Positions 1,039-4,956 of a stretch of 16,543 bases of DNA are shown piece by piece; positions within the stretch are counted from its first letter, which is position 1; each line of letters opens with the position of its first letter. The DNA is taken from the IMG/VR virus record IMGVR_UViG_2534682254_000004. One strand, written 5' to 3'. Under the pieces are notes generated by a model. It did not search any database, was not told the DNA's origin, and was given only the letters and a program-made list of their open reading frames with translations. A program made the position numbers and the translations under genes. This DNA is from a virus. Its lineage: Duplodnaviria; Heunggongvirae; Uroviricota; Caudoviricetes.

Positions 1039-1166
1039 AAGCATCTGCGCGAAAAATGCTCACGTTTATAGAGACAGTATCATTCCATTTGGCACACTTG
1101 CTTCAATAATCGATCTGTTAAACAAATAGATTGTCTATTATCTATCGATTAAAACGATCAATTATC

Positions 1167-1195
1167 TTGACAGTAATGTGCCTTTTTGTAAGATC
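1167..1195 (+). promoter_or_regulatory. Candidate sigma70 promoter (TTGACA-N16-TAAGAT) bracketed by an 11-bp inverted repeat (caattatcttg 1159-1169 / caagataattg 1213-1223)
   Basis: Perfect -35 hexamer TTGACA at 1167-1172 and a -10-like TAAGAT at 1189-1194. The flanking 11-bp inverted repeat is centred on the -10 region, an operator-like layout. Sequence inspection only. Confidence 0.3.
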
Positions 1196-1243
1196 GTTCG
1201 CATTGTGAGCGACAAGATAATTGCGCGGCATTGTCCATGCAAA

Positions 1244-1273
1244 ACGCCCCAATAGCAGCAACTATTGGGGCGT
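1244..1273 (-). terminator. Perfect 12-bp stem / 6-nt loop hairpin (ACGCCCCAATAG-cagcaa-CTATTGGGGCGT), terminator-like only on the minus strand
   Basis: On the plus strand the stem is followed by aaaactcgg (no U-tract); on the minus strand it is followed by UUU(U)G. Could end a leftward antisense or small transcript. Confidence 0.3.
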
Positions 1274-1300
1274 AAAACTCGGTCGGACTCACTTAACCTG

Positions 1301-1385
1301 ATATGCGTGCCTTCCGAAGTAAATCAAAATGTGCGTCGTATATTTTATTGCTTACACGCACCTCTGTAAAGGCACGCATATTTTT
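1301..1385 (+). promoter_or_regulatory. Structured leader: 13-bp long-range inverted repeat (atatgcgtgcctt 1301-1313 / aaggcacgcatat 1369-1381) enclosing an inner hairpin (gtgcgt 1331-1336 / acgcac 1356-1361), followed by T5
   Basis: Sits immediately upstream of the RBS (GAGG 1391-1394) and GTG start (1403) of the small ORF. Candidate attenuator, sRNA or protein-binding site. Confidence 0.3.
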
Positions 1386-1402
1386 CCTATGAGGTAAATA
1401 AA

Positions 1403-1672: not shown

Positions 1673-1680
1673 TACTTTTG

Positions 1681-1706
1681 AAGCGCCGATAAGGCGCTTT
1701 TTTTGT
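1681..1706 (+). terminator. Rho-independent terminator
   Basis: aagcgcc-gataa-ggcgctt (7-bp GC-rich stem, 5-nt loop) followed by TTTTTT, 9 nt after the ORF stop. Confidence 0.8.
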
Positions 1707-1990
1707 TTGCACGATAGTGCACAAGTTTGCACAATTTTTTTGAACGACTTTTTACCCTTCCGGCCCGCATGGCGGCTGGATCCGTCAAGGATCCGTGCGT
1801 GCACAAAAAAACGCGTTTTTTCTGCGCGCAGGTGACGGGGGAACAGCCCGCGTTTCAGGGGGTAAATAGCATCCCCTGAACGATGTCGCAGCGACACAAC
1901 AGAATGGCTGTATTTCTCACGCTGAGCGTGAAAAAGACGTGAGGGCTTTTGATTTGATGGGGTGGCAGATAAGGCCGTCAAAATCGCACT

Positions 1991-2158: not shown

Positions 2159-3205
2159 TCAGGATGTGGGCTGGGTGTCTAACAGTGCGTAAGGGTTAAA
2201 GCGGATCACCTCTTCGCCAAGCCAGTCATTGATGTGCTTCATGGCCTCCATGACGGGCATCAGCTCGTTAATTGCGTAAACCCGCGCGGCCTTCTCCACA
2301 TCACCAAACGCACTTTTTTCGCCCGGCATCGCCCCCATCAGTTGCGGCGGAACGCGGTGCGCAGCCAGCACATCATCACGGGATGCCGCCTTAACATTCA
2401 TGAACTCATCTTTTGCGGTGATCTGCTGGAACGGCAAAATTTGCACCCCCTCTTTGCCCCCGTTGGGCGCATGAATGAGCACGTTTTTAAACGCACCACC
2501 ACCACGTGCCCCCTGTAGCGTTTCTTTCAGGGAGTCCATGCTTTCGCGGTTTACCTGCGCTGCACCGATGTAGATGATGCACCCGGCGTGGGATCCGTTG
2601 TCGTAGTACAGTTTTCTGAACATGTCCGCCGAATGAGAAAGGCTGGCCGAGAGTAATGCGCCAAGATATTCCGGCATGCCGTAGATTTCCTGGTTAATAT
2701 CCGGATTCATCAGGTGGCACACTTTGCCAGGGCGAAACTGGAACGCGTCCTTGCCATCCTGCACATACCACCATGATTCAAGATCGCTTCCGCGTCGCAT
2801 GTATTTCGCCAGGGCGTGCCGTAATTTAAGCGGTTCGCCGAGCATATTGCTTCGAAGCTCAAGGAATGCGTTACCGAACACAAACCAGTCCAGCGCCAGC
2901 GCCGAGAAATCCTGCCGGGAAAGCAGCGGGTGCGGGATGTAGCAACCGAGTAATACATTGCGCTTAAAGTAAAGCGCAGACTGATGCCAGGACGTTTGCC
3001 GGGCAGCTCTTGCCAGGCCGTACCAGTCCACCGGGGTTTCATACCACCGCCCGTTATCAGCACAGTACATATTATCCAGCAGGTCATGCCCGATCAGGCG
3101 ATAAGGCCCATCAAATGTGAATGCACTGAGCGACGATTCTTTCCTGAGCGCATCAGCGAGATCAATGCGTGAACTCATGCGCACTTTTTTATTTTTTCTG
3201 CTCAT
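2159..3205 (-). CDS. Q: Portal protein (P2 gpQ-like), 348 aa
   Basis: Size and position match P2 Q (about 344 aa). Downstream partner of the terminase ATPase gene with a TGATG stop/start overlap. Leftward orientation beside cos as in P2. Confidence 0.9.
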   Translation of the reverse strand: MSRKNKKVRMSSRIDLADALRKESSLSAFTFDGPYRLIGHDLLDNMYCADNGRWYETPVDWYGLARAARQTSWHQSALYFKRNVLLGCYIPHPLLSRQDFSALALDWFVFGNAFLELRSNMLGEPLKLRHALAKYMRRGSDLESWWYVQDGKDAFQFRPGKVCHLMNPDINQEIYGMPEYLGALLSASLSHSADMFRKLYYDNGSHAGCIIYIGAAQVNRESMDSLKETLQGARGGGAFKNVLIHAPNGGKEGVQILPFQQITAKDEFMNVKAASRDDVLAAHRVPPQLMGAMPGEKSAFGDVEKAARVYAINELMPVMEAMKHINDWLGEEVIRFNPYALLDTQPTS

Positions 3206-4956
3206 CAGAACTCCATAACCGTGAAACGCTCGTTTTCTCCTTCGCCGCCAATCGGTTCGTTAATGACAGCAAGCATGGTTGCCCACGCAAGGTCGCCGTG
3301 GCTGATCCCCCTCGCGCGGTCCGTTTCGTAAGTGATAAAGCCGCCCGGTGTTTTCACCTTACGCACGGCGTTAAAGGCTGCGACCAGCTCGCGTTCGGCG
3401 CGATCGTATTCCCACCGCCCGGCGCGCATTATTTGCAGCATTTTCAGTACCAGCGACCGTTTTGATGACAGCGTGAAGGTGTACGGAATAGCAGCAGGGA
3501 AAAACCGTTTCACTATCTGATAAACAGCCTCCCCGTTCCCGCCTGTCACATCAATGCCGATGTGTTCCACGTTGTAGCGACACGTGAACTCTTCAATGAC
3601 TCTGGCCTGTTCTTCAAACTCCAGCCCCTGAACGCGTCGCGTCTCCACCGTTCGAAAACGGCCACCAGGAACAGCCGGAGGAACCACCACGGACACAGCG
3701 CCGCTGTCGCCGTTGCCACTGCTGCCGTTTGCGTCATACCCAATCCATACCGGACGATTCCCCATCGGGCGGGGAGCAAAAGGTTTCCAGTCTTTCCAGT
3801 CGTCGTATCCGTCAACACCACAGCCAATCAGGATATTCAGGTTAAATGCCGATTCCCCTTCGCGGACAAACTCACACATATAAAGATTGAGGAACTCGTC
3901 TTCGGTGTTTTCATCACGAATTTCATCAATATCGGTGTGTTTCCAGCCGTGATTAACCACATCTTCCAGCGTGACAATTTGCCGCCACGTCCGGTCAGGG
4001 CAGATAAGCCCGTTATGCAGCGTTTTCCAGTCCACAGAAAAACGCTGGCGTTTATGCGTGGCCTTTTTCTCGTTCCAGCGGTCGCCGTTCCAGTAGGCGT
4101 ATGCCTCGTGCGTTTCGGTGGATGGCGTGGAGAAGTAGGTGCGCCGCAGTCCGCTGAGGGTTGCCATAGCGCCAGCCACCTTGCGCAGTTCAGCAAAGCG
4201 ACAGACCCAGAAGAATTCATCAAAATAAAAATTGCCCGTATAGGACTGTGCCGACGCAGCAGAAGTGCCGAGAAAATGCAGCTCTGCGCCGTTGGAGAGG
4301 ATGATTTTATCGCCCCCTTTCAGCTCCACATCAACTTCAGCCGCGGCCTTCTGAATAATGCTTTTAAACTGGAACGCCTGACGACGCGACGCAGACAAAA
4401 AAATCTGGTTACGCTGGTAAGGTTGCGCCACATCGTCACGCAGCGCCATCAGCAGCGCTTCCTGTGCAAAATACCAGGTCGCCCCAATCTGTCGGGATTT
4501 CAGGATCATCCTGTTACGTATCCCTGCTTCCCTGCAAAGGGTCAGGGAGTCAAACCAGCCCCGCTGATGCCACTCCAGCCTGCTGATGATTTTTTCCCGC
4601 AGTGCGGCAATCTGTTCCGGCGTGAAATGATTTTTGAGTTTTTTCGCCCGGCCTTTCTTTCCTGCGGCCATCACATCCGGCTGGCCATCATGCAGCTTTT
4701 TAAGCTGCCGGGTCAGCAGGTCTATTTCCTTAAAGTCACCGCCTGTTTTATTCTGTTTTTCAGTAAGCTGGATGAGGCGCGCATCGATGGACTGCGTGAC
4801 ACGCTGCACAGGTGGCGTTTCATCCCACTGGTCGCGTTTTTTCCACGCATAAATCGTGTTCGGGTTTATTCCCATCAGACGTGATATTTCTGCGGGCGGA
4901 TAACCCTGCCAGTAAAGTTGCCGCGCACGCTGGCGCACAAAAGCGTCCTGAATCAT
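3205..4956 (-). CDS. P: Terminase ATPase / large subunit (P2 gpP-like), 583 aa
   Basis: Size matches P2 P (about 590 aa). N-terminal HTH-like segment and canonical position upstream of Q, divergent from the O-N-M-L operon. Confidence 0.9.
   Translation of the reverse strand: MIQDAFVRQRARQLYWQGYPPAEISRLMGINPNTIYAWKKRDQWDETPPVQRVTQSIDARLIQLTEKQNKTGGDFKEIDLLTRQLKKLHDGQPDVMAAGKKGRAKKLKNHFTPEQIAALREKIISRLEWHQRGWFDSLTLCREAGIRNRMILKSRQIGATWYFAQEALLMALRDDVAQPYQRNQIFLSASRRQAFQFKSIIQKAAAEVDVELKGGDKIILSNGAELHFLGTSAASAQSYTGNFYFDEFFWVCRFAELRKVAGAMATLSGLRRTYFSTPSTETHEAYAYWNGDRWNEKKATHKRQRFSVDWKTLHNGLICPDRTWRQIVTLEDVVNHGWKHTDIDEIRDENTEDEFLNLYMCEFVREGESAFNLNILIGCGVDGYDDWKDWKPFAPRPMGNRPVWIGYDANGSSGNGDSGAVSVVVPPAVPGGRFRTVETRRVQGLEFEEQARVIEEFTCRYNVEHIGIDVTGGNGEAVYQIVKRFFPAAIPYTFTLSSKRSLVLKMLQIMRAGRWEYDRAERELVAAFNAVRKVKTPGGFITYETDRARGISHGDLAWATMLAVINEPIGGEGENERFTVMEF

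Follow-up and report, generated by a model that had tools for sequence, protein, structure and literature searches.

A horizontally mobile control region with a predicted cis-antisense RNA upstream of an 89-amino-acid cargo gene in a P88-like prophage

In the 16,543-nucleotide stretch of Caudoviricetes DNA recorded as IMGVR_UViG_2534682254_000004 in IMG/VR (hereafter the window), about 300 nucleotides (nt; positions 1100-1400) between a StbB/ParR-type gene, parR, and an open reading frame (ORF) of 89 amino acids are crowded with inverted repeats and promoter-like motifs, which raises the question of what this interval controls. A preliminary description, made from the sequence alone, had taken it for a regulatory hub rather than a simple spacer, and had named as candidates a repressor operator, an antisense or small RNA pair, an attenuator and a displaced centromere-like site. 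The idea of a hub was borne out, as the elements are conserved together with the downstream ORF across genera. According to the explanation that we favor, 1100-1400 is probably the control region of a horizontally mobile cargo gene, with a predicted cis-antisense RNA acting on the leader of its mRNA.

The repeats listed in the preliminary description were all recovered. They comprise a long-range stem of 13 bp (P3; 1301-1313/1369-1381), a hairpin of 12 bp (P2; 1244-1255/1262-1273) and an 11-bp pair, CAATTATCTTG and CAAGATAATTG, that brackets a promoter (1159-1169/1213-1223), each of them 100% complementary, as well as a nested palindrome, placed by that description at 1108-1150, with a perfect 8-bp pair (1107-1114/1144-1151) inside 26-nt arms that are 73% complementary. 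P3 encloses an inner hairpin (1331-1336/1355-1360) and is followed by T5 (1381-1385) ahead of the ribosome-binding site, and P2 has a U-tract on the minus strand alone (TTTT, 1243-1240), the plus strand continuing with TAAAAC. In 2000 dinucleotide-preserving shuffles of 1100-1400, the probability of any perfect repeat of at least 11 bp was 0.012 and that of at least 12 bp was 0.0025, while repeats of at least 13 bp, or three repeats of at least 11 bp, were seen in 0 of 2000. Repeats of 8 bp are not in themselves unusual in this interval (5 seen vs. 0.75 expected), and although predicted folding energies beat the shuffles on both strands (z-scores of -4.0 to -5.8), any DNA palindrome gives the same result.

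For the comparison of upstream regions, relatives of the ORF with at least 52% amino acid identity were used, which yielded 26 distinct upstream sequences from at least six genera. The family was collected by an exhaustive HMMER search, a word-indexed protein search having returned only two near-identical matches. Among the relatives were another P88-like lineage (L153-L157) and a P22-like phage of Salmonella, together with lambdoid phages of Providencia and Proteus, phages of the Pantoea type and prophages of Gilliamella. Although the leaders have diverged beyond global alignment, nearly all retain the same parts; MAFFT alignment of the window with the distant leaders misaligned the GTAAA motifs, and motif-anchored extraction and subgroup alignments were used instead. 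A set of 58 loci with distant ORF homologues, scanned over 330 nt upstream, served as contrast. When a 20-nt leader motif was searched in IMG/VR, 25 of the 26 matches preceded a member of the 89-amino-acid ORF family, and the remaining one preceded a Bro-N antirepressor-like gene (L205).

A promoter-like site that the preliminary description had not listed lies on the minus strand inside P3, across its 3' arm and loop region (TTTACA at 1370-1365, 17 nt, TAAAAT at 1347-1342), with its -10 in the loop of the inner hairpin and a start predicted near 1335. The pattern TTTAC(A/T)-N17-TAnnnT was found at the same place, 57-70 nt upstream of the start codon, in all 26 relatives; the 17-nt spacing was invariant, and the -10 element took ten different hexamers, all with T1, A2 and T6. 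Among the 58 distant loci, the pattern occurred anywhere in the 330 nt upstream in five, at the conserved position in none, and together with the sense promoter pattern in none. A cis-antisense RNA calls for an opposing promoter within the transcript that it targets, and, judged by sequence, 26 of 26 relatives have one. The predicted RNA would run on the minus strand from ~1335 to ~1240 (~95 nt), starting with a tail that complements the 5' arm of P3 and continuing with the P2 hairpin and its U-tract. Its predicted fold has a z-score of -4.0, and no conserved ORF was found on it. Of the candidates put forward in the preliminary description, the antisense pair is the best supported, with the hairpin at 1244-1273 placed as the putative terminator.

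In the proposed arrangement P2 (1244-1273, minus strand, 6-nt loop) would act as an antisense terminator, and its mirror hairpin would form in the sense leader. Across 23 relatives, 92.2% of the alignment cells in P2 were paired, compared with 65.1% in shuffles and 35-55% in register-shifted controls. Compensatory changes were detected in 11 of the 12 pairs, the sequence of the stem varying by genus with the pairing kept; cells with double changes numbered 75 vs. 23.7 in shuffles, and the observed covariation was reached by 0 of 500 shuffles. The pairs were nearly all of the Watson-Crick type, and the exceptions leaned to the minus strand (6 vs. 3, and 9 vs. 3 in subgroup alignments), which is also the only strand with a U-rich flank (U4 in the window). 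A further observation concerns the 6-nt loop (equivalent to 1256-1261 of the window): in three pairs of closely related lineages, one loop was the exact reverse complement of the other (TTGCCG/CGGCAA in L164/L172, TTGGCG/CGCCAA in L043/L040 and TTGACG/CGTCAA in L198/L049) with the stem conserved; such a flip would be expected if sense-antisense complementarity alone matters. A 12-codon frame across P2 (1237-1275) was considered as a leader peptide and discarded, as by eye it is not conserved in the relatives. Searches of the window and six related loci against Rfam at permissive thresholds returned only sub-threshold, terminator-like matches, among them sar (RF00262; 22.0 bits, E = 0.16, gathering threshold 43) and ctRNA_pGA1 (RF00236; 22.1 bits, gathering threshold 45), and in both cases the hairpin alone aligned.

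On the plus strand, the predicted 5' leader of the ORF mRNA, delimited from the position of the sense promoter, would span 1201-1402 (~200 nt). The 3' arm of P3 carries a conserved AAAG(C/G) in the relatives, its 5' arm covaries with the variable remainder between lineages, and U.G pairs persist on the plus strand in subgroups. Relatives also have a hairpin (P4) between the Shine-Dalgarno (SD) sequence and an anti-SD sequence, with compensatory changes; candidate anti-SD sequences of the window are located at 1296-1299 and 1360-1364. For P1 (a hairpin at the 5' end of the leader), P3 and P4, 46 G.U vs. 2 A.C cells were counted in the alignment of one subgroup, and 19 vs. 3 in that of another. 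Because an A.C cell corresponds to G.U on the opposite strand, the rarity of A.C indicates that these helices are plus-strand RNA structures, and the asymmetry is independent evidence, drawn from sequence, for transcription of the sense leader and for the importance of its fold. The suggestion of an attenuator did not hold as a general feature: the run of T5 after P3, U5 in the transcript, is restricted to the lineage of the window, so that a conserved attenuator ending in an intrinsic terminator is unsupported. In simulations of SD accessibility with the antisense target blocked, the change was mostly downward, small and inconsistent, and these results were not used as evidence.

The sense promoter predicted in the preliminary description, a perfect TTGACA (1167-1172) separated by 16 nt from TAAGAT (1189-1194), was confirmed as a sigma-70-type pattern with a start predicted near 1201. 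The pattern TTGAnn-N16-18-TAnnnT is kept in 24 of the 26 distinct relatives with different spacer sequences, and 24 of 26 have its extended form, GATC-N5-8-TTGAnn-N16-18-TAnnnT, at some 165-235 nt ahead of the start codon; in one lineage (L172) the GATC upstream of the -35 is retained and the -10 is mutated. Upstream of the promoter lies the AT-rich nested palindromic block (1107-1151), which contains ATCGATC and ATCGAT. Block and promoter together (1103-1194) are 80-82% identical in L153/L157, compared with 55-59% for the ORF and about 50% for the rest of the leader; because the block is better conserved than the ORF in these relatives, it is probably a binding site, possibly of a protein. 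No counterpart of the block was found in lineages more distant than L153/L157. As to the view of the promoter as operator-flanked, the 11-bp repeat is real, but it is absent from the closest diverged relatives (L153-L157), and is at most a putative operator; it cannot be a helix of the sense transcript, because its left arm is upstream of the predicted start.

The same interval had been described as an intergenic region between parR and the ORF, which is correct as to position but not as to function, since everything from 1039 onwards belongs to an inserted module. The window derives from an Escherichia coli P88-like (P2-type) prophage (Xuanwuvirus, Peduoviridae), and its positions 1-2200 share 96-97% identity with Escherichia phages 520873 and 503458. 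The gene order is parM (up to 722), parR (727-1038; PF10784), the control region, the 89-amino-acid ORF and then the portal and terminase genes on the minus strand. The same parMR (94%) and the same portal side occur in P88 and in Citrobacter phage Shae_phiSM, with flanks that are 94-96% identical, but homology to the window ends precisely at 1038, picks up again at 1689/1708, and is interrupted by different genes. Because these phages have the same parMR and lack the segment, 1039-~1700 is an inserted cargo module and not part of parMR. The module, or moron (1039-1707, ~660 bp, plus strand), consists of the upstream block, promoter, leader, ORF and terminator, and lies between the parR stop codon and conserved cos/portal-proximal DNA. 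It displays the features of morons, namely presence or absence between otherwise collinear phages (1039-1688/1707 is missing in P88 and Shae_phiSM), a predicted promoter of its own (1167-1194) and a predicted strong intrinsic terminator of its own (1680-1707, plus strand; an 8-bp stem with five G-C pairs, then TTTTTTTGTTT). The gpA-gpQ slot of P2-like phages is a hotspot of accessory and defence genes (Rousset et al., PMC9122126), and the module occupies this cos-proximal slot. It is present in 166 of 5426 complete E. coli genomes (at least 95% identity), always on the chromosome, and elsewhere among phages it was found at two further sites typical of morons, one downstream of cI and one between Q and the lysis genes.

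Three GATC sites fall within the control region of the window (1111-1114, 1155-1158 and 1192-1195), the second of them 8 nt upstream of the -35 (5-7 nt in other lineages). A GATC 5-8 nt upstream of TTGAnn was found in 25 of the 26 distinct relatives, and in the control regions of 14 lineages GATC was the most over-represented palindromic tetramer (52 vs. 12.7 expected from base composition, ~4-fold). Its recurrent places are upstream of the sense -35 (all but one lineage), over the sense -10/+1 (many lineages, including the window, where TAAGATC at 1189-1195 overlaps the -10 hexamer and +1), directly after the antisense -35, and, close to the antisense start, within a palindrome, GAGATCTC or GTGATCAC. 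The site at 1192-1195 places a GATC over a core promoter element, as in Dam-regulated promoters of the IS10 pIN type, and several lineages are alike in this respect; in the Providencia and Proteus lineages two to three GATCs follow one another in a phase of 11-12 bp over the -35 region. Upstream of the distant ORF homologues (L046-L119), GATC was under-represented instead (32 vs. 46.5 expected), the opposite of the enrichment in the phage regions, and this scarcity fits hosts with GATC-specific restriction.

The gene under this control has a Shine-Dalgarno GAGG at 1391-1394 and runs on the plus strand from a GTG at 1403 to a stop at 1672. Its product, annotated as hypothetical, is a predicted Zn-binding protein (C-x3-H...C-x2-C) of phrog_3941, with function unassigned, and belongs to a widespread family of small proteins, and its relatives form 172 clusters at 50% identity. 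The AlphaFold2 model is confident (predicted local distance difference test score, pLDDT, 92.9) and has an internal duplication and the C-x3-H...C-x2-C site; no neighbor of the model was found in the PDB or BFVD, and no model in Pfam, NCBIfam or PADLOC covers the ORF domain. The distant homologues (L046-L119) lack the phage leader. DpnII-type (GATC) restriction-modification (R-M) genes were located within 2.5 kb in 37 of the 58 distant loci, and the full set of a Dam-class methyltransferase, an N6_N4 methyltransferase and a DpnII restriction endonuclease was found in 19 of 58. Fusions of the ORF domain to NOV_C/DUF3883 nucleases (PDC-S36 and PD-T4-1-like), to DndB/DpdB and to WYL domains were found as well. 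By the reasoning from gene context with which readers of modified DNA have been predicted (PMC4738411), these associations suggest that the domain binds DNA and is possibly related to GATC or N6-methyladenine (m6A).

The sequence elements, their conservation and covariation and the boundaries of the module are thus established; activity of the two promoters, production of the antisense RNA and its negative effect on the ORF are what we infer. Transcription from the sense promoter (1167-1194) would give an mRNA with a leader of ~200 nt, in which a weak 5' hairpin, P2 and P3 precede the ribosome-binding site, and folding of the leader through P1-P2-P3-P4 would largely occlude that site. In relatives, the anti-SD:SD hairpin that hides it would adjoin or overlap the 3' arm of P3. 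The face-to-face antisense promoter within P3 would fire leftward and produce an RNA of ~95 nt ending at P2 and its U-tract, and pairing of this RNA with the leader, collision of the converging polymerases, or both, would keep the ORF off. Pairing would break P3, and in several lineages the freed 3' arm or the adjacent anti-SD could then close over the SD. The GATCs of the promoters may provide a further input, through their Dam methylation state or through a GATC-binding protein, possibly the ORF product itself.

Several points weigh against this explanation. The two starts and the antisense RNA have been predicted from sequence, and the antisense -35 (TTTACA) overlaps the conserved 3' arm of P3, so that it may be conserved in part for the sake of the sense structure. 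The tail of P2 on the minus strand is UUUCCC in many relatives and weaker in a few, and the scan tool called no terminator at P2 in the window. The lineage of the window is without the clear 5' hairpin P1 of other lineages and without the GATC sites that these have around the antisense promoter, after its -35 and near its start; its simulated SD accessibility rose slightly (from 0.40 to 0.48) when the antisense target was blocked. Finally, variation across the 13 distinct E. coli variants is too sparse for testing the helices of the window or its 11-bp repeat.

In a rival account, which we consider rather improbable, the leader acts purely in cis: P1-P4 would regulate translation or stability alone, for example as a thermosensor or as the target of protein autoregulation, and the minus-strand promoter would be a by-product of the conserved GUAAAG arm of P3. 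The G.U asymmetry, which indicates that the sense leader folds, the covariation of the anti-SD:SD hairpin and an SD that is mostly paired even without antisense RNA are all in line with it, but constraint on structure alone fails to explain why TAnnnT stands exactly 17 nt from TTTAC(A/T) in ten versions and in differing structural contexts of the sense RNA. A type I toxin-antitoxin system or abortive infection module, with a toxic ORF, a labile antisense antitoxin and a folded leader that silences a stable mRNA (as in hok/sok and symE/symR), seems equally doubtful. Its geometry fits, with an antisense promoter in a long structured 5' untranslated region (UTR), an occluded SD and an antisense RNA made of a 5' tail and a hairpin, and the module is located in phage defence hotspots. 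A type I toxin would, however, be expected to have less than ~60 amino acids and to be hydrophobic or otherwise toxic, whereas the product here is polar, with 89 residues, predicted Zn-binding and a globular model that points to a soluble protein, and its homologues are R-M accessories without such a leader. The displaced centromere of the preliminary description, a parC-like or other parMR-related site bound by ParR, draws on the adjoining parR and on the AT-rich palindromes. It was ruled out, and we give it next to no credence, because the whole region is missing from phages whose parMR is 94% identical, no direct iteron array of the kind expected of parC occurs in it, and lambdoid and P22-like phages carry the control region at a locus that has no parMR. 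It is scarcely more probable that the operons on either side (parMR on the plus strand, portal-terminase on the minus strand) merely have incidental terminators or insulators here, accompanied by chance palindromes; P2 does resemble a minus-strand terminator, and no strong terminator was found after parR in the window, but this account is already contradicted by the comparative data, since the elements covary and travel with the ORF into unrelated contexts, and three long perfect repeats were never obtained by shuffling.

A different kind of alternative places the switch in the DNA, where the palindromes and GATCs would be operators for Dam, SeqA or a GATC-binding protein (possibly the 89-amino-acid protein), and the state of methylation or replication would decide the balance between the two promoters. 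This account is compatible with antisense control, upstream of which it would act, and we regard it as a possibility, if a minority one. It agrees with the enrichment of GATC at conserved promoter positions, with the phased GATCs over the -35 in Providencia and Proteus lineages, with the DpnII/Dam-type R-M operons in which most of the distant homologues are found (37/58), and with a block and promoter (1103-1194) better conserved than the ORF. On the other hand, the antisense promoter of the window has no GATC, the 11-bp repeat around the sense promoter is lineage-specific, and gene association is no proof that the ORF protein binds GATC. That methylation state or the ORF protein balances the promoters is, by itself, a tentative hypothesis. 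More speculative still is a complete epigenetic sense/antisense switch, in which GATCs on both promoters would read the Dam-methylation or replication state of the phage DNA so that either sense or antisense wins, and synthesis of a phage-borne copy of a GATC R-M accessory protein would be confined to one particular moment, for instance infection or induction; with a duplicated Zn-binding fold not described before, this protein would recognise GATC or m6A DNA and feed back on its own operators, which contain GATC.

Some further observations were made on the cassette and its surroundings. In L205 (2300-3285), the cassette of promoter, leader and antisense promoter precedes a Bro-N antirepressor-like gene, which takes the place of the gene for the Zn protein, and is directly downstream of a CI/S24 repressor gene; antirepressor genes are classically silenced by antisense RNA, as P22 ant is by sar. 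In Salmonella phage BIS08P22 (L200), a coding sequence annotated as hypothetical protein between cI and the ORF homologue (3165-3401) overlaps the expected position of the leader and may be a mis-annotation. A strong and often bidirectional terminator is found to the left of the cassette in other phages (at about 2725-2760 in L039/L041, with equivalents in L042, L160 and L163, and in the L164 type), while in the window merely a weak 5-bp hairpin (1040-1064) trails parR, so that parMR transcription may read into the module. In E. coli CH4793 (NZ_CM166350.1, 1996361-1997809), an IS1-family insertion cuts the module into two pieces. The DNA from the module to the portal gene (1689-2158) is conserved among P88-like phages and presumably includes the cos region; it contains direct repeats GTTTGCAC(G/A)AT at 1705-1715 and 1725-1735, a palindrome at 1708-1731, and a G+C-rich hairpin at about 2106-2133 with A/T runs on either side.

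Temperate phages have accessory hotspots in which genes for defence and counter-defence are sought, but the control of these cargo genes is mostly ignored. Here the control unit stayed with its cargo across three phage slots and at least six genera, because of which tight control evidently matters. In addition, the link between the ORF family and DpnII/Dam-type R-M is a concrete lead towards a new DNA-methylation-related domain and towards the ways in which phages may sense or exploit GATC methylation.

A description of this cassette was not found in literature searches, and it is best compared with known systems as a putative cis-antisense-controlled accessory gene of a mobile element outside all Rfam families. 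It resembles the RNA-IN/RNA-OUT pair of IS10/Tn10, whose pIN promoter is reportedly Dam-sensitive, in its face-to-face promoters, in a short stable stem-loop antisense RNA that would pair with the 5' part of the mRNA, and in a GATC over the sense -10. It differs in that the overlap would be ~135 nt compared with ~36 nt in IS10, the start codon would not be covered, the cargo is no transposase, sequence similarity is absent, and Dam dependence is here a hypothesis. With CopA/CopT of R1 and the counter-transcribed RNAs (ctRNAs), it shares an antisense promoter in the leader, ~60-70 nt upstream of the start and reading away from the gene, a GC-rich terminator hairpin at the end of the antisense RNA, and an effect on translation that would be indirect, via leader structure, but no conserved leader peptide was seen by eye and the cargo is no replication gene. 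The likeness to P22 sar/ant lies in a temperate-phage antisense RNA of similar size that would restrain a dangerous accessory gene, in the leader relative that precedes a Bro-N gene, and in the weak, sub-threshold similarity to the sar terminator hairpin; sar, however, covers the ant ribosome site, while the RNA predicted here would lie 65-160 nt upstream of the start, and the genomic setting is different. Type I toxin-antitoxin systems such as hok/sok and symE/symR also have a long folded 5' UTR that occludes the SD and a cis antisense RNA with a 5' tail and terminator hairpin, and they too reside on mobile elements, but the protein is here a predicted soluble, Zn-binding member of an R-M-associated family. 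As in the morons reported from phages and in the gpA-gpQ hotspot of P2, the module has its own predicted promoter and terminator, is present or absent between collinear phages and is cos-proximal; most of the morons described are said to have simple promoters, whereas this one carries a conserved leader with promoter patterns for both sense and antisense transcription.

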